Positions 2,735-63,671 of a stretch of 64,000 bases of DNA are shown here, in pieces. The notes below the pieces were generated by a model. It was not told where the DNA came from, ran no database searches, and worked only from the letters and a program-made list of their open reading frames with translations. This DNA is from Patescibacteria group bacterium. GTDB taxonomy: Bacteria; Patescibacteriota; Patescibacteriia; 2-12-FULL-57-11. Every line of letters begins with the position of its first letter. Within the stretch, counting starts at the first letter, position 1. The stretch spans positions 93,862 through 157,861 of the forward strand of contig SCUL01000001.1 of the NCBI GenBank assembly GCA_004297205.1. Reading direction: 5' to 3'. The position numbers were made by a program, and so were the translations under genes.

Positions 2735-3781
2735 TCAGTCAACCAGTGCCAGCACCACGCCGATCACCGCCGCCACGGCGGAAATCACCCAGGCACGCAT
2801 GACGATCTTGGGTTCCGGCCAGCCCATGGCCTCCAGATGATGGTGGATGGGCGCCGACAGGAAGACTTTCTTCTTGCGGATCTTCTTGGACAGCACCTGG
2901 ATGATCACGGAGAGCGACTCGACGACGAAAACGATGCCGATCACGGGCAGGAGCAGTGCCGTGTTGGTGAGCATGGCCACGATGCCGAGCGTGACGCCGA
3001 GCGACATGGCGCCGGTGTCGCCCATGAAGAAACGCGCCGGCATGATGTTGAACCACAGGAACGCCAGGAGCGCCCCGGCGATGACGCCGCAGAACGCGGC
3101 CAGGTCGTAGCGGCCCTGAGCGAAGGCAATTGCTCCGTAGGCGGCGAAGCCGGTGAGCAAGGTGCCGCCGGCCAGACCGTCGAGTCCGTCGGTTTCGTTC
3201 ACGGAAAACGCGGTGGCCACGATCACCAGGAAGAACAGCGGGATGTACCACCAGCCGATGTCGAAAACGCCCAGGAACGGCACCTGGAACTGCGTCCATT
3301 CCAGCTTGAAGAAAAACCACCAGGCGCCGACCGCGGCGATGACGCTGTAGATGGCGAGGCGGTGCCGGGCGCGCAGGCCGCCGCCGTGCGCGCCGATCTT
3401 CCGGACGTTCCAATAGTCGTCGACGAGCCCGACCACGGCCGAGGCTACCAGCGCGCCCAGCGGCAACAGCGTTTCGCTGCGCGTCAGGAAGGAGAGCTGC
3501 GCGAAGATGCCGTCGAACCAGACGCCGAGCGCGGCCAGCGCCAGCGCCAGCACCGCCGTCGTCACCCAGACGAGCAACCCGCCCATGACCGGCGTGCCGG
3601 ACTTGGCGGCGTGGAGCTTGGCGTAAATCGGCGCCTCATCCGCCGAACGGATGCTCTTGCCGAGCTTGTACTTGTACAGGAAGTGGGTCAGCGCCGGCGT
3701 CCAGGCCATGGCCGCGACGAAGCTCAGCGTGGCAAGGACTCCGATTTTGATGACGGCGAAAGTGATGGGCATGTCAGGCAA
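2735..3781 (-). CDS. mraY: phospho-N-acetylmuramoyl-pentapeptide transferase MraY
   Basis: Motifs NETDGLDGLA, MGDTGA and APIHHHLE, in a polytopic membrane protein of about 348 aa. Confidence 0.9.
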   Translation of the reverse strand: MPDMPITFAVIKIGVLATLSFVAAMAWTPALTHFLYKYKLGKSIRSADEAPIYAKLHAAKSGTPVMGGLLVWVTTAVLALALAALGVWFDGIFAQLSFLTRSETLLPLGALVASAVVGLVDDYWNVRKIGAHGGGLRARHRLAIYSVIAAVGAWWFFFKLEWTQFQVPFLGVFDIGWWYIPLFFLVIVATAFSVNETDGLDGLAGGTLLTGFAAYGAIAFAQGRYDLAAFCGVIAGALLAFLWFNIMPARFFMGDTGAMSLGVTLGIVAMLTNTALLLPVIGIVFVVESLSVIIQVLSKKIRKKKVFLSAPIHHHLEAMGWPEPKIVMRAWVISAVAAVIGVVLALVD

Positions 3782-52802: not shown

Positions 52803-53780
52803 CTACGGCAGGTTTACGTTGACGTTCAGATTGAGATTCGCGTTCGCGTTTGCATTGGCATTCACGTTCACGTTCTCATTTTCGTTCTCATTTTCGTTTT
52901 CGTTGTCGTTCTCATTGTCGTTTGTGTTGACGTTGACATTGGCGCGCGGGCCGGTACCCGTCGCCGCGCCCGAACCGACGCGCAACTCGATGCGCAGCCT
53001 CAGCTGGCTGGCGGCCATGATCTGGGCATCCTGGGCGGTACGATGGGCCTGGGAAGCCAGCTGGAAAGCCTCGCCGTTCGCCCCGGCCGCAAGTCGGGCG
53101 CGCGCCTCGACCAGCAGAGTGTCGGCGGCGGACAGACGCGCTTCGCCGCGGGCCGTCGCTTCGGCGGACAGACGCGCACGGACACCGGCAATGTAACGAC
53201 GGACCTCGGCGATCTTGTTGGTGGCGGCGCCGATGCGGCCCTCCGCCGCGGCCCGCACGTCGGCCTGCGCCTTCAGGCGCCCTTCGAGATCGACGCGGAT
53301 GCGCTCGAAGGCGCGTGCCTCCTCCCCCACGCGGCCCCGAAGCGCGGCGGTCTCGGCCGCCTCCGACTGGCTGTCGATGTCGGCTTCGAGCTGCGCCAAG
53401 ACCTGCTCATGTGCCTTGAGCGACGTCTCGAGGTTCGAGGCGATGTCGGCCGCGGCCCGCACGTCGGCGTCCTCCAGATCGTCAATCAGCGCCTGGACGC
53501 GCCCGGCATGATCGCTGAAGTTTGTCTCGACCTGGGCACGCGTCTGGCCGTCCAGCCGGCCGTCCACGGCCAGCCGTTCCGCTTCATTCAGCCGTTCCAC
53601 GGCGATCTCGCCGTTCGTGCCGGCCTTGGCTTCGGCCGAAACGGAGAGCCCGACGCGCACGCGCTCGTTGACCTGGACCTTGATCGGATGCAGGACGTCG
53701 CCGGGAAGGCTGGTGTTGGCGGCGACCGAAACGCCCCCGCCGAGGACCAGGGCTATGATGATAGCGATGATTGCGTTCAT
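52803..53780 (-). CDS. coiled-coil protein with an N-terminal TM anchor and a low-complexity Asn-rich C-terminus (DUF5667-like architecture). An alternative in-frame start at 53981 would add a 67-aa basic N-terminal extension.
   Basis: Start at MNAIIAIIIALVLGG with AAGGA upstream. Long Ala/Glu/Arg-rich heptad region. Tail NVNVNTNDNENDNENENENENENVNVNANANANANLNLNVNVN. The upstream in-frame MARYGKAAQKSVKRAVSKYKRRK... is K-rich and not junk-like. Confidence 0.55.
   Translation of the reverse strand: MNAIIAIIIALVLGGGVSVAANTSLPGDVLHPIKVQVNERVRVGLSVSAEAKAGTNGEIAVERLNEAERLAVDGRLDGQTRAQVETNFSDHAGRVQALIDDLEDADVRAAADIASNLETSLKAHEQVLAQLEADIDSQSEAAETAALRGRVGEEARAFERIRVDLEGRLKAQADVRAAAEGRIGAATNKIAEVRRYIAGVRARLSAEATARGEARLSAADTLLVEARARLAAGANGEAFQLASQAHRTAQDAQIMAASQLRLRIELRVGSGAATGTGPRANVNVNTNDNENDNENENENENENVNVNANANANANLNLNVNVNLP
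52806..52935. repeat. imperfect hexanucleotide repeat (~20 units, NNCGTT-type) encoding the (N-V/N-E/N-A) tail
   Basis: cgttcagattgagattcgcgttcgcgtttgcattggcattcacgttcacgttctcattttcgttctcattttcg... Confidence 0.6.
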
Positions 53781-54040
53781 ATAAACGAATCCTTTAGCGG
53801 CGCCGACGCGGGGCGGCGGCACCTTGGCGCCTTTCTTGCGCGCCATGGATAAACCAATAGCAATGGCTTGCGCACGGCTGCGGACCACGCGCCGCGCTTT
53901 GCCGCTGTGGAGTTTCCTTCTTTTATATTTGCTGACCGCCCGTTTGACCGACTTTTGGGCGGCTTTCCCGTATCTCGCCATACGCGGGAGAAAAGAAAAG
54001 GAGCAAGAATTCGATTATACACTTTTTGTGTCCCGCCGGA

Positions 54041-55069
54041 CTATACGATCTGCTCAAACAGCCGGGCGTAGGCCTGCCCCACCCGCCGCCGGTCGAAGCG
54101 CGTCTCCGCTTCCGTGCGGCATGCTTCACGAGAAAGACGGCCGACATTGCCGATCCTATCCTTGAAATCCTCAAAGGAGTCAACGATATAGCCGGTCACG
54201 CCGTCGCGCAACACCTCCGGCACGGAACCGTTGTTGAAGGCCACGACCGGCGTGCCGCAGGCCAGGGACTCGATCATCACCAGCCCGAACGCCTCCTGCC
54301 AGCGGCTCGGGAACAGCAGGGCTTTGGCGCCGGCGAAGAGGGCGGACTTTTCCGCCTGGCTGATTTCGCCGACATAGCGGATCTGCTCGCCGTCCACGAA
54401 GGAGAACACCTCCTTTTGCACGAAGGCCTCGTCTTCCTTCCGATACACGCCGGCGATGACCAGCCGTTCCCCGAGCTCGCGCGCCGCCCGAACGGCAAGA
54501 TCGACGCCCTTGTCGTGCGTCATGAGACCGATGAAAAGCAGATACCCGTCGCCCGGGGAGAAATCCGGGATATAGGCCGAGGTGTCGATCCCGTGCGGAA
54601 TGGTGGCGACGTAGTTCAGCGCGGGGGCCAACCGGCGCTGCGCCTCGCTGATCGACACGAACGGCCGGTCCTTAAAGCGCTCGGCCAGGTAGGGAAAGTC
54701 CGGCGGCTTGCTGCCGTGCAGCGTGGTGACGATCGGCGCGTCGACCACCCGGCTCAAGACGAGCGGATGGATACCGGCATGATTATGGATGACGTCGAAC
54801 TCGCCCGCGCGCGCCAGGAGCTCGTCGAACGCCAGGAACTCGTATGCCGGGACGGCGTTCCAGGAGAATCCGCCGAGCAGTTCGAGCATCGGCTTCCCGA
54901 TGACTTGCACCAGCGTGGCGGGGGTCTTCGATCCGCCGCAGGCGAACAGCGTCACCTCGTGACCCAACTCGTGCAGGGCCGTGGAGATGTCGGAGACGGC
55001 CAGCTCCGTGCCGCCGTATTTGGGCGGCGGGACCGGGACCCACAGCGGGGCGAATTCGGCGATCCTCAT
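54041..55069 (-). CDS. glycosyltransferase family 4 (GT-B, retaining)
   Basis: EAFGLVMIESLACGTPVVA is the EX7E region. 342 aa. Confidence 0.8.
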   Translation of the reverse strand: MRIAEFAPLWVPVPPPKYGGTELAVSDISTALHELGHEVTLFACGGSKTPATLVQVIGKPMLELLGGFSWNAVPAYEFLAFDELLARAGEFDVIHNHAGIHPLVLSRVVDAPIVTTLHGSKPPDFPYLAERFKDRPFVSISEAQRRLAPALNYVATIPHGIDTSAYIPDFSPGDGYLLFIGLMTHDKGVDLAVRAARELGERLVIAGVYRKEDEAFVQKEVFSFVDGEQIRYVGEISQAEKSALFAGAKALLFPSRWQEAFGLVMIESLACGTPVVAFNNGSVPEVLRDGVTGYIVDSFEDFKDRIGNVGRLSREACRTEAETRFDRRRVGQAYARLFEQIV

Positions 55070-56538
55070 AGACGGGTCCTGGTTTCTAATTCCTTAAGCA
55101 ACATCGCGGAAACACGTTTGGTGAAGCGGGTCTCGGCGTCGACCATGACCACCGACGCATGAAGCGCAAACACGAGGACGGCGGCGGCCGCGATCGCCGG
55201 GCGTCCTTCGGCGACGGCGATCATCCCGAGCACGGCGCTGACGATGCTCATGCCGATCTCGAAAATCGAGTGTTCGACGGCCGGGGGAACGCGCGGAATG
55301 ATGAACTTGTTGGTGCGCTCAAACTTGCCGCCGAGGCGGAAGACGCCCAGGAAGAGCGCGGTGGCGTACGTCCAATTCATGCCGAAGTGGACGGCCAGGG
55401 CCCGCAGGATGTCCGTCCAGGAGTATCTCCCATGGAACAGCAGGCCGAAGGCAACCGTCTTCGTCGCGACGTGGATGGCCAAGGCTGCCGCGGACACCAG
55501 GATGATCCGTTCGGTGAAGCGCCCTTCGCCGATGCCGGCCATCTCCGCCAAGGAAAAGGCGACGATGCACAGGCTCGGGAGCAACGTAAAATTCGTCCAG
55601 GCGCCGAGTTGCGACAAGAGCGCCAGCTTCTGGGCCCACGACAGGTCGCTGGGGAAGACGATGTCCGTGAAACGCCGCATCAGGACCTCCATGTTCCCGC
55701 GCGCCCACCGCTTCTTCTGTTTCTTGTAGGCGACGAAGTCGTACGGCATCACCCCGCGGCCCATGACCCGGTCGACAAAGACGCCGCGATACCCCGCAAA
55801 GAACAGCCGTGCGCCCATCTCGGCGTCCTCCGTCATCGAAGTGGGCGTGTAGGGCCCGACGTGCCGCAGCACCGCGGCGCGGAAGACGGTCAGCGTACCC
55901 GTCGCCGTGACGCACCCGAAACGGTTGCCGGCGTTCAGGTAATTCTGGAAGAAGTGCTCATACTCGATGCGCAGACCCCGGTTCCCGGAACCGATGTTTT
56001 GGTAGGTCTGCGGAAACTGCACGAAGGCCACGCGCTCGTCGCTGAAATACCGCAGCGCTTCCGTGAGGAAGTCCGGCTGGACCTCGTAGTCGGCGTCGAC
56101 CACGGCGATGAATTCCGCGCGCGGGTCGGTCTTCTCCCGCAACAGATTCAACGCTCCGGCCTTGAATCCGGACAACTTGTCGACGTGATAGAACCGGAAG
56201 GGCGCCCCGAGCTCCTTGCAGTAGGCCTGGATGGGTCTCCAGACGGCGGGGTCCGCGGTGTTGTTGTCCAGGACGATCACCTCGAAGTCGCCGTGCCGCA
56301 ACCCGTGCAGCGAGCGCAGGGTGTTCTTGAGCAGGACGGGCGGTTCGTTGCAGGTCGGCACGTGGATCGAGACGAAGCCGGTGCGCGGTCGGGCCGAGCG
56401 CCGCGGCGGTCTCTTGGGGAGCAGGGCGCCGACGATCTGTAATCCGCCCTGCACGGCCACGAGGGAAACCGAGCCGTATGTCAGCAAAAGCAGGGCGCCG
56501 ACAAAAATGTCATGTGCGGCCGTGACATACAGGGGCAT
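55066..56538 (-). CDS. glycosyltransferase family 2, processive (cellulose-synthase-like), with a C-terminal TM domain
   Basis: VIVLDNNTAD, VVDADYEV, TEDAEMG and the QxxRW-type KKQKKRWARG. The 4-nt overlap with the GT4 gene suggests an operon. Confidence 0.8.
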   Translation of the reverse strand: MPLYVTAAHDIFVGALLLLTYGSVSLVAVQGGLQIVGALLPKRPPRRSARPRTGFVSIHVPTCNEPPVLLKNTLRSLHGLRHGDFEVIVLDNNTADPAVWRPIQAYCKELGAPFRFYHVDKLSGFKAGALNLLREKTDPRAEFIAVVDADYEVQPDFLTEALRYFSDERVAFVQFPQTYQNIGSGNRGLRIEYEHFFQNYLNAGNRFGCVTATGTLTVFRAAVLRHVGPYTPTSMTEDAEMGARLFFAGYRGVFVDRVMGRGVMPYDFVAYKKQKKRWARGNMEVLMRRFTDIVFPSDLSWAQKLALLSQLGAWTNFTLLPSLCIVAFSLAEMAGIGEGRFTERIILVSAAALAIHVATKTVAFGLLFHGRYSWTDILRALAVHFGMNWTYATALFLGVFRLGGKFERTNKFIIPRVPPAVEHSIFEIGMSIVSAVLGMIAVAEGRPAIAAAAVLVFALHASVVMVDAETRFTKRVSAMLLKELETRTRL

Positions 56539-56659
56539 AGTTGGTCGTGGACCATTATGCCATCCGGACGGGAAAATGGCCACTCGCCGCATGTCGCCGC
56601 CGCAGGAGCTGCGGGAGCTGAGCGGTCAGGGGCGGTAGGAATCGGTTTGCTGCCGCAAA

Positions 56660-56692
56660 CGAAAACACCAGCCACATCGGCTGGTGTTTTCG
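56660..56692. terminator. bidirectional terminator hairpin AACACCAGCC-acat-GGCTGGTGTT with T-runs on both strands
   Basis: Perfect 10-bp stem at the left edge of the low-GC island. Confidence 0.5.
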
Positions 56693-56832
56693 TGACAGGC
56701 CAACTCGCCTGAAAACTGACACTTTCAGGGGGGTTCAAGCTACTTTCGGGGTTTGACCGCTGGATACTCGGTCGGAAGAGAAAAGTGGAAAAAGTGGGAC
56801 TCCGGGTGAGGGGCGTGTCTCACTTTTAGAGG

Positions 56833-57345
56833 TTACAGGAGCCGCGCGGTCGAAAGCTTGATGGAGAGTGCCTGGGCACTGACAAGGTATTTCTTCGCCA
56901 GCGAAGGAATGTCCGGCGTGGCCGCGAGATCCTTCTTTAGCATCTTCGCGGGCATCAGCAATTCGCCAGCAAAGAGGTTCGCCTCCTTTTCGGCGTGCGA
57001 GGCCGGACCGTCTTCGCTACAGCTACCGTGCCTCATGAGCATGTGTCCGATTTCATGCGCCAGTGTAAAGCGGCGGCGACACCCTGGGTGGTTCTCGTTG
57101 AACACAATCGTGACGAATTCATCGTCCGCCTTTTTACACACGACCAGAAGTCCAGAGACCTTTTCGGTGAACTTCTGGCTGCCGACCACGTCTAGGTTTG
57201 TTTTGGACTGAAGATGCTCAATGACTTGGCGCAGGGACACGGGTGCGGTCGAGATGCGCGCATGCTTCAGAAGATTTTGAGCTGTGACTTCAGCAAACTT
57301 CTTCCGAGGCCCGAGATCGACCCCGCCCTCATCCATTCTTTGCAT
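56833..57345 (-). CDS. ImmA/IrrE-family metallopeptidase (anti-repressor protease)
   Basis: HEIGH motif in RFTLAHEIGHMLMRHG. Start at the internal Met overlaps the XRE gene's 3' end, as in immR-immA pairs. Confidence 0.75.
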   Translation of the reverse strand: MQRMDEGGVDLGPRKKFAEVTAQNLLKHARISTAPVSLRQVIEHLQSKTNLDVVGSQKFTEKVSGLLVVCKKADDEFVTIVFNENHPGCRRRFTLAHEIGHMLMRHGSCSEDGPASHAEKEANLFAGELLMPAKMLKKDLAATPDIPSLAKKYLVSAQALSIKLSTARLL

Positions 57346-57679
57346 TCCCTTTTCGCTTAGCCATTTCAATAATCCGCTCGATCGCTTCCCGATCTTGTTT
57401 GGAAATATTCTTCTCCGCCCTAAGCGCAACTATGACGTCCATCTTTGTGTCTTTGCCCAGCAAAGAATCCACGTCGATCTTAAGGATGCTTGCGATGCGA
57501 CCCAGATTCTCCGCCGTCACCCCGCGCTGGTCGTTTTCTATGAGGGAGATGGCGGTAGCGGTTTCGAAATCCAGCGCCTTCGCAAGGTCAAGCTGTGAAT
57601 AACCTGCGGCCTCCCGTGCAGCCCGTATGCGCTGACCAATTGTTTTCGCCTTATTCTCATCGGTTTTCATACGTTTCAT
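57329..57679 (-). CDS. XRE-family helix-turn-helix transcriptional regulator (ImmR/Cro-C1-like)
   Basis: IGQRIRAAREAAGYSQLDLAKALDFETATAISLIENDQRGVTAENLGRIASIL is an HTH_XRE domain. Confidence 0.8.
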   Translation of the reverse strand: MKRMKTDENKAKTIGQRIRAAREAAGYSQLDLAKALDFETATAISLIENDQRGVTAENLGRIASILKIDVDSLLGKDTKMDVIVALRAEKNISKQDREAIERIIEMAKRKGNAKNG

Positions 57680-57707
57680 GTTGGCATGATAGCATCATCG
57701 TTTCGAT

Positions 57708-57755
57708 TTGACAAGGGTATTTCGTATTGATATACTTCTATTGTCATAATGACAA
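57708..57755 (+). promoter_or_regulatory. consensus-like promoter TTGACA-17nt-TATACT followed by a perfect palindrome TTGTCAT-a-ATGACAA (candidate repressor operator). A divergent promoter for the XRE gene overlaps it on the other strand.
   Basis: gatTTGACAagggtatttcgtattgaTATACTtctaTTGTCATAATGACAAtatcc lies 25 nt upstream of the operon's first ATG. In reverse it reads TTGTCA-17-TATCAT before the XRE ATG. Confidence 0.55.
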
Positions 57756-57778
57756 TATCCCCCGTAGGGGTCACCCAC

Positions 57779-58051
57779 ATGAACACCTACCTCGTGTCGT
57801 ACGACCTTCGGAAGCCGGGAAAGGATTACGCCCCGCTGCACGCGTTCCTCAAAAAGTATTCGGCATACGCGAAGCCCCTTGAGTCGCTGTGGTTCGTGAA
57901 GAGCCCGCTGACCGCCGAGGGCGTCCGCAACGAGATCATGACCCAAATCGACTCCAACGACCGCCTCTTCGTCGTGAACGTCACCAAGGCGGGTGCGGCT
58001 TGGACCGGCGTGGACAACGCAAATTCTAACTGGATTAAGGCTAACATGTAA
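57779..58051 (+). CDS. hypothetical small protein with a Cas2/VapD-like beta-alpha-beta-alpha-beta sequence pattern (putative ferredoxin-fold nuclease-like)
   Basis: MNTYLVSYDLRKPGKDYAPLHAFLKKYSAYAKPLESLWFVKSPLTAEGVRNEIMTQIDSNDRLFVVNV. Compare the Cas2 pattern LVxYDI..kRraKv.k.L..yG.RvQnSVFec.l......l...i..ii...DsvriY.l. There is no cas1 or CRISPR array in the window. Confidence 0.45.
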   Translation: MNTYLVSYDLRKPGKDYAPLHAFLKKYSAYAKPLESLWFVKSPLTAEGVRNEIMTQIDSNDRLFVVNVTKAGAAWTGVDNANSNWIKANM

Positions 58052-58056
58052 CCCCT

Positions 58057-58278
58057 ATGGCAAACCAGCACATAGTGCAGCGCGAGGAAGGTTGGGCGGT
58101 CCGGCGCGAGAAGGCCGGACGCGATACCGCCGTCCTCGACACCCAAGCGGAGGCAATCAAAGAGGCGAAGCGCATCGCGGACAACCAGGGCGGCGAGGTG
58201 CTCATCCACGGGCGTGACGGCAAGATCCGCAACAAGGATACGCACAGCAAGGTCGACCATCACCCACCTAAAGGCTAA
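58057..58278 (+). CDS. DUF2188-family small protein
   Basis: HIVQREEGWAVRREKAGRDTAVLDTQAEAIKEAKRIADNQGGEVLIHGRDGKIRNKD matches the DUF2188 pattern. Confidence 0.6.
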   Translation: MANQHIVQREEGWAVRREKAGRDTAVLDTQAEAIKEAKRIADNQGGEVLIHGRDGKIRNKDTHSKVDHHPPKG

Positions 58279-58283
58279 CCCCC

Positions 58284-58502
58284 ATGAACATCGGCGAAGT
58301 TAAGAACAAGGCAGAGTGCCCCGCCTGCAAGGCTGCGGTCGAGTTCACCCTGGTGGAGATCGCTGCGGAATCGTCCGTGACATGTGGCGGCTGCGGGGCA
58401 TCAATCAAGCTCACCGACAAGGACGGCGGCGCAAAGAAGCTCATCAAGGAGATGAACGATATCACCTCCCAATTCCCCAAGAAGATCACCCTCAAGTTCT
58501 AA
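58284..58502 (+). CDS. small zinc-ribbon protein (CPAC...CGGC)
   Basis: 72 aa with four Cys in two CxxC pairs. The 5-nt spacing from the previous gene suggests it is in an operon. Confidence 0.5.
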   Translation: MNIGEVKNKAECPACKAAVEFTLVEIAAESSVTCGGCGASIKLTDKDGGAKKLIKEMNDITSQFPKKITLKF

Positions 58503-58526
58503 TCCATCACCGACCCAAACGACCGT

Positions 58527-58835
58527 ATGATTTACGACTTCAAGGGTCCGTACACCTTCTCTGAAAAGGTCATATCGGACTGGGACAGCGACTCGATCGG
58601 CGTCTACTACTGCGGATACAAAAATGCGGATGGAAAGCTCGCTATCTGCTACATCGGCAGGGCAGTCGCCGAAGGCGGTATGCGCGGACGCCTCCTCGAG
58701 CACCTCGGTGAGGACAAGTGGTCCGATGTTACTCACTTTGGCTTCCATCGTTGCGACACCGCCACGGAGGCCAAGAACCACGAGATTGCCGAAATCGTTC
58801 TCTACAAACCCAAATACAACACGGTCGGCAAGTGA
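58527..58835 (+). CDS. stand-alone GIY-YIG nuclease domain protein
   Basis: GVYYCGYKNADGKLAICYIGRA...RLLEH...NHEIAEI carries the GIY-YIG motif, the Arg and the Glu. It has no additional DNA-binding domain. Confidence 0.65.
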   Translation: MIYDFKGPYTFSEKVISDWDSDSIGVYYCGYKNADGKLAICYIGRAVAEGGMRGRLLEHLGEDKWSDVTHFGFHRCDTATEAKNHEIAEIVLYKPKYNTVGK

Positions 58836-58937
58836 GTGTGGTGCCGCACCTCGCCGAGAAGTACACGAGGTAGCTCGCGGAATAAAAAACGTAACGCCCT
58901 CGAACATGCTGAGGGCGCGGTAGTGATCCATAATCGT

Positions 58938-59014
58938 GCTTTGCTTATCGGGCTAAAAACTTATCTACTTGTTCGATAAGCCGAGCCCATGTAACTAGGT
59001 GTGACCTTTGTTTA
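58938..59014. promoter_or_regulatory. AT-rich region upstream of the methyltransferase gene with an inverted repeat GCTTATCG...CGATAAGC and a palindrome TTTGTT-tat-AACAAA. Candidate promoter/operator.
   Basis: Seen directly in the sequence. It is preceded by a terminator-like hairpin CGCCCTC-gaacatgct-GAGGGCG at ~58895. Confidence 0.35.
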
Positions 59015-59030
59015 TAACAAATAGATAGTT

Positions 59031-59810
59031 ATGGGAAATTCCTATACAATTCCAATGTTAATCGCTATGCCAGAAGCAGTAGCTACAAAACGACGGATCC
59101 AGGGAGGGGTCGCTACGACCAACCTAGTCTTGTCAGCCCATGTAACGGGAAATGCCGATGTCTTCCCGACAGTTATTGATTTGCATGTGGCTCCGGGATC
59201 AAAGGTGGCTGACGTCACTTACGGAAAGGGTGTTTTTTGGAAAAAGGTTCCGCCGGGAAAGTACCAACTTTTCCCGAGCGATCTGAAAACCGGAATTGAT
59301 TGCACAAAATTACCCTACGAAAACGAGAGTCTTGATTGCGTCGTTCTTGATCCCCCCTACATGGAGGGGCTATTCCGCGGATCAAAGAATCAGCTGGCCG
59401 GATCTGGTACCCACGCAGCCTTCCGCGAAAACTATTCCAACGGTCAAGCATCCTCAATTGATGGGCCGAAATGGCACGACGCTGTTCTCGACCTGTACTT
59501 CCGTGCTGGCATCGAGGCCAGGAGGGTTCTAAGAAATGGCGGTACGCTCATCGTCAAATGCCAAGATGAAGTGAGCGCAAACAGGCAGAGACTTACTCAC
59601 GTTGAGATCATCAACGAGTACGTTGGGTATGGATACTACGCGAAAGATATTTTCGTAGTCGTACGGACGAACAGGCCGGTCATGAGCCGACTAAAGAAGC
59701 AGGTTCACGCTCGAAAAAACCATTCTTACTTCCTCGTGTTCGTGAAGGTCCCTGTCAACAAAAATCCGCGTCTTTATCGACCGCGAAGCAATTCGTCGAG
59801 CAACGGATAG
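59031..59810 (+). CDS. DNA methyltransferase (N6-adenine or N4-cytosine class, DPPY motif). Probable modification subunit of a type II R-M system.
   Basis: [10 protein letters not shown] (motif IV) followed by LAGSGT (motif I-like), which is a beta-class order. The gene is low-GC. Confidence 0.75.
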
Positions 59811-60352
59811 GGATCGGTGGTAAAGGGAGGCTCAGGAGGCCAAGAGACGTTGACTGTAGTGGCCAGCAGGTGTTGCTGCTGCTCGGGGGTATACTTTTTG
59901 GATTTAGATCTCGGAAGGTCTTTGTTTTTTGCAAAAATGAACCTCCAACCCTCCCCGAACGAGAAGAGATTCACCGCCAAGATATCGAACTCGCCCACAA
60001 GCAGGCACGTGGTTTCGACAACTGACCCGTCAAACAGCTTGACTGGCCGCCGGTCGCTTGCGTCAACTTGGGCTTTTCCGCACATCACCTTGTCAACACA
60101 ACGGATACTATTCGTTTGAAGCGACTTCACTTCGATGAAGAACTCTCTGCCACCGTAAGTAACGGAAATATCGCCTTTCTTAGTGCGGTCGTGATCATCA
60201 TACTTTTTTACATTTGTCACTTCCTTACGGCCATCGAACCACGTCTTCTTGGCCTTGGTCTCGCCGAGATAACCAAGAAGCATCCCGCGCAGGCTGGGAT
60301 TCGTGTCTATTACTTCGGTGAGATCATCCGCTGTGATCTCCCATCTCTGCAA
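59774..60352 (-). CDS. putative restriction endonuclease (PD-(D/E)xK-like motif), convergent with and overlapping the methyltransferase gene
   Basis: [17 protein letters not shown] gives D...E-x-K. The call rests on position and motif only, with no recognisable family. Confidence 0.4.
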
Positions 60353-60569
60353 GATGTCCTTCTTGGGGTCACTCAGATCGAGAGAGTATTACCACAAATT
60401 GACAGATGAGTCCAGTATAGCGCCCAACCATCTTCGGCGACTAGCCACACAGTAATTGAAAAAGCACCAACCGAAGATGGCGGCTTTCAGCAACTGGCTT
60501 GGGACTCCGATCTTTGGAACCGGCGCGCAACTTCCGCTGGGAAGCCGGATTTTGACGCAAGTCATCTCT

Positions 60570-60616
60570 TGGCAGGGGCGGTAGGAATCGAACCCACGCA
60601 AGGGGTTTTGGAGACC
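60570..60616 (-). repeat. partial tRNA-Trp gene copy (3' 47 nt: acceptor, T-arm and part of the anticodon stem). An att-like direct repeat of the intact tRNA-Trp 1.4 kb away.
   Basis: tggcaggggcggtaggaatcgaacccacgcaaggggttttggagacc is identical to 62026..62072 and lies at the right edge of the low-GC island. Confidence 0.7.
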
Positions 60617-60627
60617 TTGCGCGAGTG

Positions 60628-60664
60628 ATAAAAAAGTAGGCTCTCAGCATTTCTGCTGAGAGCC
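60628..60664 (-). terminator. intrinsic terminator hairpin GGCTCTCAGCA-tttc-TGCTGAGAGCC plus a T-run, minus-strand orientation, downstream of rtcB
   Basis: 11-bp perfect stem, with TACTTTTTT on the minus strand. Confidence 0.55.
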
Positions 60665-60689
60665 CGGTGCTGTCGCGTCGTCGAGGCGA

Positions 60690-61877
60690 TCACCCCTTGA
60701 CGCAGAGCACCTGCTTGAGCTCGGCCACGATCTCGACCAGGTCCGCCTGGTTGGCCATCACCCGCTCGATGTCCTTGTAGGCCGCGGGGATCTCGTCGAG
60801 GACCCCTTCGTCCTTGCGGCACTCCACGCCGGCGGTCTGCGCGGCGAGGTCCGCCGTCGTGTAGGCCTTCTTGGCCTTGTTGCGGCTCATCCGCCGACCG
60901 GCGCCATGCGAGGCGCTCTGGTAGGACTCGGCGTTGCCGCGGCCGCGCACGATGTAGCTCTTCGCGCCCATCGACCCGGGGATGATCCCGAGATCGCCGG
61001 CACCCGCGCGGATCGCGCCCTTGCGGGTGATGAAGAGCTGCTCGCCGAAGTGCGTCTCCTCGGCCACGTAGTTGTGGTGGCAGAGTACCGGTGCCTCGCA
61101 GGTCATGTGCGGAAAGGACCCGCGCAGCACCGCGAGGCAGCGCTCCAGCATCACGGTCCGGTTGATCCGCGCGTACTCCTGCGCCCAGTAGAGGTCGCGT
61201 CGGTACGCGGCCATCTGGGGCGTTCCGGCGAGGAACACCGCGAGGTCGCGGTCCGGAAGCTCGGCGTTGTGGGCCAGCTTCTTGGCCGCGGCGATGTGGA
61301 AGTCGGCGAGCTCCTTGCCGATGTAGCGGCTGCCCGAGTGCAGCATCACCCACACCCGGCCCTCCGTGTCGAGACACAGCTCGACGAAGTGATTACCGCC
61401 GCCGAGCGTTCCGAGCTGCTTCGCAGCGCGGCTGGCCAGCTGCCCGACCTTCGGCGACAGCTCGGCGAACCGCGCCATGAGCTCGGCGCCGGCGCGAGCC
61501 GTCTCTGCCGCGCATGCCGCGAACACCGGCTCCTCGTAGGTGGCGAAGCCCACGGGGATCGCCGCCTCGATCGCGAGCCGAATCTCGCGCAGCGACTCCG
61601 GCAGGTCGCCCGCGGTGAGGTTGGTCCTCACCGCGCCCATGCCGCAGCCGATGTCGACACCGACCGCGGCCGGCGACACGGCGTCGCGCATGGCCACGAC
61701 GGAACCGACCGTCGCGCCCTTGCCGAAGTGGACGTCCGGCATGATGGCGACGTGGTGCACGCACCACGGCAACCGGGCGATGTTCTTCAGCTGCTCGAGC
61801 GCCTCGGCCTCGACGTCGGCGACGTCGGTCCAGAGCTTCACGGGTACCCGACCACCGACGATCTCACTGCGTGCCAT
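60690..61877 (-). CDS. rtcB: RNA-splicing ligase RtcB
   Basis: GGGNHF, HGAGR and MPDVHFGKGATVGS are RtcB motifs. 395 aa. High GC, host-like. Confidence 0.9.
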   Translation of the reverse strand: MARSEIVGGRVPVKLWTDVADVEAEALEQLKNIARLPWCVHHVAIMPDVHFGKGATVGSVVAMRDAVSPAAVGVDIGCGMGAVRTNLTAGDLPESLREIRLAIEAAIPVGFATYEEPVFAACAAETARAGAELMARFAELSPKVGQLASRAAKQLGTLGGGNHFVELCLDTEGRVWVMLHSGSRYIGKELADFHIAAAKKLAHNAELPDRDLAVFLAGTPQMAAYRRDLYWAQEYARINRTVMLERCLAVLRGSFPHMTCEAPVLCHHNYVAEETHFGEQLFITRKGAIRAGAGDLGIIPGSMGAKSYIVRGRGNAESYQSASHGAGRRMSRNKAKKAYTTADLAAQTAGVECRKDEGVLDEIPAAYKDIERVMANQADLVEIVAELKQVLCVKG

Positions 61878-62025
61878 AGCTGTTTTCTCCCTGTGGTGTT
61901 TGTTATGGAAAGAGAAGCGAATTGTTCAGGAACGACGCGACAGTAAATCACATTTTCTCTGGAAAGTCAAGCCTGTGCGCATGTACAAGAAAAGCGCGGC
62001 CGTCAGTACGACGGTCGCGCTTTTC

Positions 62026-62099
62026 TGGCAGGGGCGGTAGGAATCGAACCCACGCAAGGGGTTTTGGAGACCCCTGTACTACCATTATACGACGCCCCC
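62026..62099 (-). tRNA. tRNA-Trp (anticodon CCA), with the 3' CCA encoded
   Basis: The reverse complement GGGGGCGTCGTATAATGGTAGTACAGGGGTCTCCAAAACCCCTTGCGTGGGTTCGATTCCTACCGCCCCTGCCA folds as a cloverleaf. The anticodon loop is CTCCAAA and the T-loop is GGTTCGATTCC. Confidence 0.85.
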
Positions 62100-62147
62100 A
62101 GGCGCGGAAGACGTTACGCGAAAATGTCCGACAGGGCAAGACTGCCA

Positions 62148-63671
62148 CTATTTGAACGAGTCCGCGAACACCGGCGCGATCATGGTGTCGACCGGGACGT
62201 AATCGTCGGTCAGGACGAGCCCCTTCTTCTCCGTAACGAATCGGTCGAGCTCGTCGGCGGGAATCAGGTAGTGCATGCGCTCCCAAAGATCCGCGGCGTT
62301 CTCGCCGTCGATGCGCACGCCCGTGGGAGCGCTCCCCTTCCAGTCTCCCGGCAACTGCGCGTCGCTCGCCAGCACCACGAAGGTGTTGCGGCCTTTGTCC
62401 CGCCAGTTCTCGCCGAGCGGCAGCACCAGAACGGTGGCGAATTGCGCGCGCAGCGTTGCCACGGTCGAAGCCAGGAAGCGGCCGTGCCGCGCGTCGTCGA
62501 TGATGTTCACGGCGTACCAGCCGTCGGACGCGAGATGTTCCTTCACGAGTCCGTGGAACTCGCGCGTCGTCAGGTGGTACGGCACCGAGTAGTCGTTGAA
62601 GGCGTCGCCGAACACGAAGTCGTAGCTCTCGTCGGCGGGCATGCGCATCAAGGCGATGCGCGCGTCGCGGTTGACGCTGACGATGTCCGTGTCGCGCGGC
62701 AGGCCGAACCGTTCATGGACGATCTCGGTCACGCCGGGGTCGATTTCGAGCACCGTGTTCGCCGATCCGGGGTACTGCGCGGCGACGTACCGCGGCATGG
62801 TGTATCCCCCGCCGCCGATATAGAGCGCGCGCGGCGCCGCTTTGCCGACCGCGGCCATCAGCACGGCGTACACTTTCTCGTATTCGTACCCGAGCTCGCT
62901 CGGGTCGGTCTTGGAGACGTAGCTGTGCACGAGGTGGTCCAGACGCAGGATGGAAAAATCCTCCTGCTCGGTGACGCGGATGCAGTAATACTGCGTCTCG
63001 GCCGTGCACTGCGCCGGCAGGAACAGCGTCGAGATGAACAGCAACCCGGCGGCAGCGGATTTCTTGCCCGGTCGCAACCCCTGCGCGTGAACGAAGGCCG
63101 CGAGGAGCAAAAGCACCACCGCGGACAGACGCACGATGGTGGCCGTGCCGATGAGGTCGATCAGGACGAAGCCGGTCGTGAACGTGCCGAGGATGCTCCC
63201 CAGCGTGCCGAGCGCCGAGATGCGGCCGACCGTGCGCCCGGTCCGCGACAGGTCGGTCAGGTCGAACTTCACGACGAGCGGCGAGACGGCCCCGAGCAGG
63301 ATGCTCGCCGGCAGGAAGGTGAAGATGGAAAACACCAAGGCTGCGACCATCAACGGCAGCGGCGTAAACGTCAGGGTGTTGCCGAGCACCGGCACGATGA
63401 ACAGCACCAGGATGGTGGCGATACCGGCCGCGAAAAAAAGCACCGCCACATGCGCGCGCTTCAGCTCCGTGTCCGCCACTTTGCCGCCCAGCCAGGCGCC
63501 GATGCTGATGCCGGCCAGGATGACCCCGATGATGGCCGTCCAGGTGAAAATCGAGACGCCCAGGTACGGCGCCATGACCCGGCCGGCCACCAGCTCCAGC
63601 GTCATCAATACGAAACTCGCCAGGAAGACGATCGTCCCTCCGAAGCGCAAGGATTCCCTCCCCTGATCCAT
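62148..63671 (-). CDS. polytopic membrane domain fused to a spermidine-synthase-like (PABS) aminopropyltransferase domain
   Basis: N-terminal ~200 aa of TM helices, then LYIGGGGYTMPRYV...DFVFGDAFND, which are spermidine synthase family motifs. Confidence 0.7.
   Translation of the reverse strand: MDQGRESLRFGGTIVFLASFVLMTLELVAGRVMAPYLGVSIFTWTAIIGVILAGISIGAWLGGKVADTELKRAHVAVLFFAAGIATILVLFIVPVLGNTLTFTPLPLMVAALVFSIFTFLPASILLGAVSPLVVKFDLTDLSRTGRTVGRISALGTLGSILGTFTTGFVLIDLIGTATIVRLSAVVLLLLAAFVHAQGLRPGKKSAAAGLLFISTLFLPAQCTAETQYYCIRVTEQEDFSILRLDHLVHSYVSKTDPSELGYEYEKVYAVLMAAVGKAAPRALYIGGGGYTMPRYVAAQYPGSANTVLEIDPGVTEIVHERFGLPRDTDIVSVNRDARIALMRMPADESYDFVFGDAFNDYSVPYHLTTREFHGLVKEHLASDGWYAVNIIDDARHGRFLASTVATLRAQFATVLVLPLGENWRDKGRNTFVVLASDAQLPGDWKGSAPTGVRIDGENAADLWERMHYLIPADELDRFVTEKKGLVLTDDYVPVDTMIAPVFADSFK

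Follow-up and report, generated by a model that had tools for sequence, protein, structure and literature searches.

Tandem tRNA-derived repeats around a solo rtcB gene point to serial, decayed insertions at a Patescibacteria tRNA-Trp gene

We analysed a stretch of 64,000 nt from a contig of a Patescibacteria group bacterium (hereafter the window), in which an intact tRNA-Trp gene and a perfect 47-nt copy of its 3' part bracket one gene, rtcB. A low-GC island lies directly behind the displaced copy, and shorter pieces of tRNA-Trp end sequence follow behind the island. In our reading, to which we give a probability of roughly 0.6, DNA was inserted serially at this one tRNA gene by Campbell-type events, and the inserts have since decayed. 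An original prediction made from the sequence had described the two copies as remnants of attL/attR-like attachment (att) sites. Their geometry and boundaries fit this description, but neither an integrase nor an exact empty site was found.

Geometry of the tRNA-Trp gene and its displaced copy

Two features define the locus:

62026..62099, minus strand: intact tRNA-Trp(CCA) gene, the attL-like copy, 74 nt with encoded CCA (ARAGORN, Rfam RF00005)
60570..60616, minus strand: displaced 47-nt 3' part of tRNA-Trp, nt 28-74 of the gene (repeat search)

This tRNA-Trp(cca) is the sole tRNA that ARAGORN finds in the window, and at 62026-62099 it scores 60.3 bits against the full Rfam model RF00005. The segments 60570-60616 and 62026-62072 form a 47-nt direct repeat with 100% identity (47/47), as had been predicted. 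Two sub-patterns of the 47-mer, searched with up to 3 mismatches, occurred only at the two known sites, with 0 expected from 100 shuffles. The repeated block runs from base three of the 5' anticodon-stem strand to the very end of the encoded CCA, and the sequences flanking the two copies differ at once on both sides. A second tRNA gene at 60570-60650 was considered and rejected: neither ARAGORN nor Rfam (E<=1) reports one there. A second intact tRNA gene at this place would have refuted the original prediction. The 27 nt preceding the fragment consist of the T-tract of the rtcB terminator and a spacer, and hold no 5' tRNA half.

According to the Islander approach, a regenerated tRNA gene (tDNA) and a displaced fragment mark the ends of an island (PMC4383910), and crossover takes place at subsites in the anticodon loop, in the T loop or at the T/acceptor junction (PMC4383910). 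Here, a complete tDNA and its cognate 3' fragment stand on one replicon in equal orientation. The identity blocks begin at these known subsites, the 47-mer in the anticodon stem and an 18-mer (described below) in the T loop. As far as sequence can tell, the geometry of the 47-nt repeat fits an attL/attR pair formed at an anticodon-loop attachment site. The 47-mer would then be both the attR-like end of an rtcB module and the attL-like end of the low-GC island.

The displaced copy and the 11-nt spacer beside it also form an inverted repeat, with 9/11 positions matching as DNA and an 11-bp stem when folded as RNA. In this stem, CACTCGCGCAA plus the first GG of the displaced copy pairs with CCTTGCGTGGG across the anticodon loop. 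By our own binomial estimate, in which 7/9 flank positions are complementary, the chance of such a dyad is p ~0.001 per register. The dyad around the anticodon loop may be a core-type recombinase site. Over 60590-60627 (minus strand), the spacer reads CTCGCGCAA and with GG pairs with CCTTGCGTGGG; the intact tRNA gene has no such extension.

A single transcription unit between the repeats

In the orientation of the tRNA, the order is tRNA, terminator T1, promoter, rtcB, terminator, 11-nt spacer and 47-mer. The features between the repeats are as follows:

61988..62025, minus strand: terminator hairpin T1, abutting the tRNA CCA; inverted repeat with 17-nt arms and 94% complementarity
61942..61970, minus strand: rtcB promoter TTGACT-N17-TTTACT (sequence, alignment)
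60690..61877, minus strand: rtcB, 3'-phosphate/5'-hydroxyl RNA ligase, short bacterial form, 395 aa (PF01139)
60628..60665, minus strand: intrinsic terminator of rtcB, a 12-bp stem followed by a T-tract (terminator scan, fold)
60617..60627, minus strand: the 11-nt spacer, distal end of the rtcB module (RNA fold)

The assignment of rtcB is based on a full-length match to PF01139 (418 bits, 5.5e-125, profile positions 1-426/426) and on a match to phrog_1075 (3.5e-134). RtcB homologues in PDB match at 1e-28 to 7e-34. Thermus TTHA1785, human RTCB and Pyrococcus RtcB are among the matches (7e-34 to 7e-28), and the GGGNHF, HSGSR, PGSMG and HGAGR segments align with them. The prediction that only rtcB, with a terminator of its own, lies between the repeats was confirmed by gene, Pfam and terminator scans. 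rtcB is the sole real gene of the 1409-nt interval, the leftover six-frame pieces of the interval give no Pfam match at E<=0.1, and the rtcB terminator was graded strong, with its core at 60638-60665 in the interval.

With just T1, a promoter, rtcB and a terminator between the repeats, integration and transfer genes are absent and attL and attR are kept, as in a cis-mobilizable element (CIME). In the best reading, the rtcB unit is CIME-like, a minimal, integrase-less module flanked by att sites.

T1 itself belongs to the interval that the repeats bound. Over its first 12 nt (GAAAAGCGCGAC) it equals the sequence that follows tRNA-Trp in a distant relative, L003. The local alignment of the two (z=5.1) runs from base 1 after CCA in both, and the 3' arm is also common to them. 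Taken with the tRNA allele and the missing Zn-finger ORF described below, this suggests a chromosomal tRNA-Trp locus as the original source of the att region in the rtcB unit.

rtcB is probably not native

The base composition of rtcB (GC 0.695, and 0.93 at third codon positions, GC3) lies at the upper edge of that of the host genes (GC3 0.80-0.93), and the whole interval has GC 0.666 versus a background of 0.646 +/- 0.020. The host-like GC noted in the original prediction was thus reproduced by GC3, but it is not proof that the gene is native. Among 5.8 billion proteins searched, the best non-self match of RtcB reaches 77%, whereas the adjacent and faster-evolving SpeE-like membrane protein finds matches of 90, 87, 86 and 84% in the same database. 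By this comparison rtcB looks acquired. The gene is not at the tRNA-Trp locus in the three closest relatives (L002, L066 and L069), and the sister lineages seem to have no orthologous rtcB. On these sequence comparisons, rtcB is probably not native to the lineage.

Nine loci with rtcB homologues (70-77%, mostly Patescibacteria/Uhrbacteria) were inspected. All carry rtcB as a solo gene in unrelated neighbourhoods, and none of the nine has tRNA-Trp or flanking repeats at the locus, so a recurrent association of rtcB with this tRNA was rejected. A literature search returned no report that ties rtcB to tRNA-gene islands. The promoter architecture is kept 5' of rtcB homologues in unrelated contexts (L041 and L062), suggesting that rtcB travels or persists as a self-contained unit. 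At L041, which holds the closest rtcB homologue (77%), a direct repeat of 36 nt (3638-3767) lies 94 nt before a tRNA-Asp gene. This repeat duplicates the 5' end of tRNA-Asp together with 8 nt of upstream sequence, and rtcB is found 4 kb downstream, past a run of small unannotated ORFs (open reading frames).

The RtcB family joins tRNA halves, and Nanoarchaeum equitans has split tRNA genes. Like Nanoarchaeum equitans, the present genome bears RtcB and a separately encoded tRNA 3' part. The tRNA-Trp 3' piece might therefore be expressed as a half, a decoy or a repair substrate that acts with RtcB and is kept by selection, and the perfect conservation of the copy, 21 nt after the rtcB terminator, would agree with such a coupling. 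We give this explanation almost no credence. The copy sits behind a strong terminator with no promoter match between, its first base is nt 28, which is not where anticodon-loop cleavage occurs or introns sit, and the acceptor 3' strand has no partner. Moreover, 0/9 of the rtcB homologue loci have an adjoining tRNA fragment, and two more tRNA-end remnants, beyond the low-GC island, are unlinked to rtcB. A split tRNA or functional half was rejected as well, as an intact tRNA-Trp is present, the fragment does not start after nt 37, and it has no complementary leader.

The duplication is present in the reads

We compared independent k=31 unitigs from run SRR8426588 with the contig. The unitigs break exactly at the 47-mer, and one of them (L070) stops 30 nt inside it. 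Another (L001) has a length of 1469 nt, that is 1409 + 30 + 30, beginning with the last 30 nt of the 47-mer and ending with the first 30. In the reads, the 47-mer thus occurs with two different left contexts and two different right ones, and the duplication is present in them. A circular form was sought and L001 was considered as a candidate. It was rejected, because its length of the interval plus 2 x 30 nt is what a k=31 break at the repeat predicts. The unitigs, which look alike for the integrated and the excised form, gave no evidence of excision.

As the contig belongs to a metagenome-assembled genome (MAG), and as the k=31 unitigs break at the 47-mer and leave its contexts unphased, the rtcB segment could have come from another strain or from a free circle and been threaded into the assembly via the common 47-mer. 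Such an artefact is highly improbable. The repeat is shorter than the reads and than the larger k used by assemblers, so the path through it should resolve. All four junction halves are found in the independent assembly of the run, and a circle of 1.4 kb could not be maintained without a gene for its replication.

Older tRNA-end remnants behind a low-GC island

The low-GC island lies outside the repeats, as predicted. This island is itself bracketed, though, by the 47-mer on one side and by tRNA remnants on its far side:

56700..60569, no strand assigned: low-GC island X, GC 0.528
56693..56699, minus strand: CCTGTCA, a 6/7 match to the last 7 nt of tRNA-Trp (CCTGCCA)
56653..56692, minus strand: terminator T2, homologous to the terminator directly after tRNA-Trp in L002
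56627..56644, minus strand: third copy, 18 nt, CGATTCCTACCGCCCCTG, an exact match to tRNA nt 54-71

Homology to L002 begins sharply at CCTGTCA in the local alignment. A decayed tRNA body upstream of CCTGTCA was looked for and rejected, since nothing significant was obtained against either of two tRNA-Trp alleles (compared below); the lack of tRNA-like sequence here indicates a sharp breakpoint. CCTGTCA plus T2 aligned with the tRNA-Trp end and terminator of L002 at a score of 51, versus 18.4 +/- 2.1 for shuffles. A further alignment, from base 1 past the tRNA end in both, gave z=11.3, and blastn matched T2 too. In the simplest reading of these alignments, T2 would mark the older downstream flank of tRNA-Trp, and by its homology to the L002 terminator the 5.3 kb between the present tRNA and T2 would be inserted.

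The 18-nt copy CGATTCCTACCGCCCCTG starts 8 nt past T2. It extends from the T loop to the discriminator base, is of the window's own allele type, and is followed by ACC instead of CCA. The 18-mer occurs 3 times in the window, always on the minus strand, with 0 expected. We also considered whether it is an ancient scar common to L002, but ~14/19 positions (by eye) is too weak a match, and this was rejected. The putative distal att of X is either the 7-nt trace or the 18-mer. [quoted passage not shown] The original prediction had named successive integrations as one possible history, and CCTGTCA-T2 and the 18-nt copy strengthen that suggestion. It had also named deletion of the integrase and of a second repeat: no integrase gene or fragment is found in the window, while the second repeat is truncated rather than absent.

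The GC of X (0.528 versus a background of 0.646) is below that of the lowest equal-size background window (0.621). X contains the following genes:

59774-60352, minus strand: PD-(D/E)XK-like ORF, 192 aa, D...EVK motif
59031-59810, plus strand: N4/N6 DNA methyltransferase (phrog_24333, 1e-68)
58527-58835: GIY-YIG-like ORF
58284-58502: Zn-ribbon
58057-58278: DUF2188/PDC-S16
57749-58051: phrog_1090 (Cas2-like)
57329-57679, minus strand: XRE repressor, CapH-like (PADLOC capH, 1e-13; phage regulator PHROGs)
56833-57429, minus strand: M78 peptidase, CapP-like (PADLOC capP, 2e-22; phage regulator PHROGs)

X is a small restriction/defence island without a recombinase. Its XRE/M78 pair is divergent (head-to-head) from the gene string at 57749-60352. 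The pair at 56833-57679 and the divergent string at 57749-60352 could form a restriction or defence island that is under CapH/CapP control in a Patescibacterium. Among viral contigs, the X peptidase has no relatives, and the X methyltransferase matched just phage methyltransferase homologues, which has no bearing on integration.

The DNA behind tRNA-Trp varies among relatives

The SpeE-like gene next to the tRNA (62148-63671) is a fused MFS/spermidine-synthase-like gene, and it places the window in a high-GC Patescibacteria clade. Its amino acid identity to the window is 89.5% in L066, 86.6% in L069, 85.8% in L002 and 66% in L003. With 84.6% between L066 and L069 and 83.8% between L066 and L002, the window is nested among these three. 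The window, L002 and L069 have a common order of rpmG, SpeE-like gene, further sequence, tRNA-Trp, a variable part, HI0933-like flavoprotein, ABC transporter and GIY-YIG. The variable part differs in 4/4 clade members:

L002: HicB-like small gene, further ORF, leucine-rich repeat protein
L069: Bro-N protein, small ORFs
L066: Dcm/Vsr island, ending in a large serine recombinase
Window: rtcB, 47-mer, low-GC island, two glycosyltransferases, DUF6496 protein

Such different contents in all members make the DNA behind tRNA-Trp an insertion hot spot in this clade. L002, L066 and L069 have neither rtcB nor island X behind tRNA-Trp. The island of L066 (5200-12100) encodes a helix-turn-helix (excisionase-like) ORF, a Dcm methylase, Vsr, DUF6339 and a 448-aa large serine recombinase, and no tRNA-derived direct repeats were found there. 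By exact matching, metagenome contigs returned 0 matches for the 47-mer and 0 for the junction of tRNA 3' end and T1, and viral contigs returned 0 matches for three tRNA or junction patterns.

In the window, the remaining variable part holds GT2 and GT4 glycosyltransferases (54041-56592, minus strand) with host-like GC 0.641, between the 18-nt remnant and the flavoprotein gene. This pair is not at the locus in L002 and L069, and it may be yet another insert, of older date, or genes retained in this lineage only. A DUF6496/DUF5667 protein is encoded at 52803-53981 (minus strand), in a part of the locus that is not syntenic with the relatives; its C-terminal end has long asparagine-rich dipeptide repeats (NDNENDNENENEN..., NVNVNANANAN...).

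The tRNA gene itself was compared over 62026-62141 of the window, 4930-5071 of L066, 4745-4883 of L069 and 14150-14291 of L002. The comparison includes one further feature:

62100..62141, minus strand: upstream (promoter) region of the tRNA gene (blastn, alignment)

This region is orthologous to the region 5' of tRNA-Trp in the sisters L069 and L002. Against L069, it is identical over the 23 nt before the tRNA gene and on through GGGGGC, so that the 42-nt upstream region is of the clade type. The gene behind it is of another type: the 74-nt tRNA-Trp of the window differs in all stems, with compensating changes, from the 75-nt allele of L066, L069 and L002, and its T arm and acceptor match those of the more distant L003 and L004. 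This points to the replacement of one allele by another in an essential, single tRNA gene whose promoter stayed in place.

We also compared the segment between the SpeE-like gene and the tRNA (window 62100-62147; L066 2650-4990; L069 1952-4800; L002 11059-14210; L003 1745-2240). A small Zn-finger-like ORF lies in this segment in L002, L003, L066 and L069 and is not present in the window. In the four relatives, other genes also stand between the SpeE-like gene and tRNA-Trp; these too are absent from the window, where the tRNA promoter begins ~6 nt past the SpeE-like stop codon.

These comparisons bear on a rival explanation, in which a pre-assembled 5.4-kb block (L003-like tRNA body, T1, rtcB, 47-mer and X) was imported in one event. 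The resident tRNA-Trp would have kept its first ~6 nt and last 7 nt, with the body in between replaced, and the duplication would have been made earlier, in another host. Such an import would account for a window allele that differs in its stems from those of the three closest relatives even though the window is nested among them, and for a sequence that is of the clade type up to GGGGGC and again from CCTGTCA-T2 onwards. The tRNA plus T1 is 85% identical to L003 over 110 nt, compared with 73% DNA identity for the flanking gene, and the absence of the Zn-finger ORF from the window also agrees with it. On the other side, an 18-nt copy of the window type stands beyond T2, outside the proposed block, and ordinary homologous replacement would need more than the microhomologies of 6-9 nt. 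In addition, the T arm and acceptor of the outgroups L003 and L004 are of the window type, so the window allele could be ancestral and that of the sisters the imported one. We consider the import of a block possible but rather unlikely.

A proposed history and the evidence against it

Under the serial-insertion reading, X, possibly together with an earlier element that left the 18-mer, would have inserted first. A circle carrying a tRNA-Trp 3' part, T1 and the rtcB unit would then have recombined with the tRNA gene in or near the anticodon loop, at a site of the anticodon-loop class used by tyrosine integrases. This insertion would regenerate a complete tRNA and push the prior 3' part, joined to X, 1456 nt downstream. 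The resulting tandem array would read tRNA - [T1-rtcB] - 47 nt - [X] - CCTGTCA-T2 - 18 nt, with the newest insert beside the tRNA. All recombinase genes would later have been lost, or were never in the rtcB unit, and both inserts would have become fixed. The rtcB unit would thus resemble a minimal cis-mobilizable element that could be remobilized only with a matching integrase in trans. Three parts of this history are inferred: the making of the joints by a tyrosine integrase, the order in which the events took place, and the past of the rtcB unit, which may always have been minimal or may be what a deletion left. The repeat nearest the tRNA is the newest and the best preserved, as repeated insertion at the functional copy would predict. 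We also counted the low GC of X, its phage- and defence-type genes and its CapH/CapP-like pair in favour of insertion.

Several observations weigh against this history. Pfam finds no integrase, resolvase, recombinase or transposase among all predicted genes of the window or in the non-genic six-frame pieces of 56.4-62.15 kb, where integrase pseudogene fragments had been sought. No exact empty site was found in the three closest relatives, whose tRNA-Trp allele differs, so that attB cannot be aligned. Since these relatives have a different allele behind the same promoter, the intact tRNA of the window may itself be imported. T1, which belongs to the insert in a Campbell model, resembles the chromosomal tRNA-Trp terminator of L003. 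The 1409-nt interval is T1 plus one transcription unit, with no trace of an integrative and conjugative element (ICE), an integrative and mobilizable element (IME) or another mobile element. The traces at the far end of X are short (7 and 18 nt), which makes their assignment to events ambiguous, and the k=31 unitigs cannot phase the left versus right junction contexts of the 47-mer.

Some of these observations would also be expected if no site-specific recombinase had acted, and the repeat had arisen by deletion of a second tRNA-Trp copy or by a RecA-mediated or illegitimate single crossover of a circle with 47-nt homology. The window has no integrase, the interval consists of a chromosomal-looking terminator and one gene with GC3 in the host range, and T1 resembles a chromosomal tRNA terminator. 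We regard this origin as improbable. A homology of 47 nt is short for efficient RecA recombination, and the dyad at the edge of the block speaks against it. The further tRNA-end remnants in equal orientation imply that site-specific insertion recurs at tRNA-Trp. The boundaries of the block are those typical of anticodon-loop att sites (PMC4383910).

Another idea concerns the rtcB unit only. It could be a true minimal cassette rather than the remains of a deletion, moved as a 1.46-kb circle by a tRNA-Trp-specific integrase acting in trans and consisting of one self-expressed gene, a 47-nt tRNA-derived att site and its own tRNA terminator. This is speculative and, in our view, doubtful. If true, it would explain why related Patescibacteria have solo rtcB genes with a conserved promoter in unrelated contexts, and it would amount to an integron-like shuffling of single genes at tRNA genes in small-genome bacteria.

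Relation to known systems

Like Islander islands, the locus has an intact tDNA with a displaced direct 3' fragment, and tandem inserts at one tDNA. Unlike them, it has no integrase in either interval or in the window, and the integrase filter of Islander would reject both intervals. The rtcB interval, with 1.4 kb and one gene, is also far below the usual size, and the host is a Patescibacteria MAG.

The tandem accretion of decayed, integrase-less elements that keep their att sites is an established pattern among CIMEs (PMC5704250). The ICESt1-related CIMEs of Streptococcus thermophilus (Pavlovic et al. 2004, as summarised in PMC5704250) have, according to that summary, lost integration and transfer genes, kept attL and attR, and accumulated in tandem at the 3' end of the target gene, and newer elements enter an att site of the resident array, as we propose here. 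As far as the summary describes them, they differ from the rtcB unit, which has no ICE or IME remnant and no helper, and may never have been larger. The islands at one small-RNA gene of a small-genome bacterium provide another parallel, inasmuch as their published outline describes repeated site-specific acquisition of accessory DNA. According to the same outline those islands mobilise site-specifically, whereas the elements here appear decayed and have no recombinase.

In E. coli and Salmonella, rtcB is part of the rtcBA RNA-repair operon with its regulator RtcR. The ligase here is of the same family (PF01139) and of the short bacterial form. Unlike in rtcBA, its gene stands alone, with a sigma-70-like promoter and a terminator of its own, and no rtcA or rtcR adjoins it.

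Overall, we see in this locus an ordinary tRNA-gene insertion hot spot that has decayed and kept its att scars, and the biology behind it is well known. Two cautions follow for the study of such genomes. Island finders that require an integrase would miss both inserts, and host-like GC is no proof of a native gene, as rtcB is apparently not in the sister lineages. The locus shows accessory genes, here an RNA-repair ligase and a small restriction/defence island, piling up behind one tRNA, followed by loss of the recombinases, in an uncultured high-GC Patescibacteria genome.

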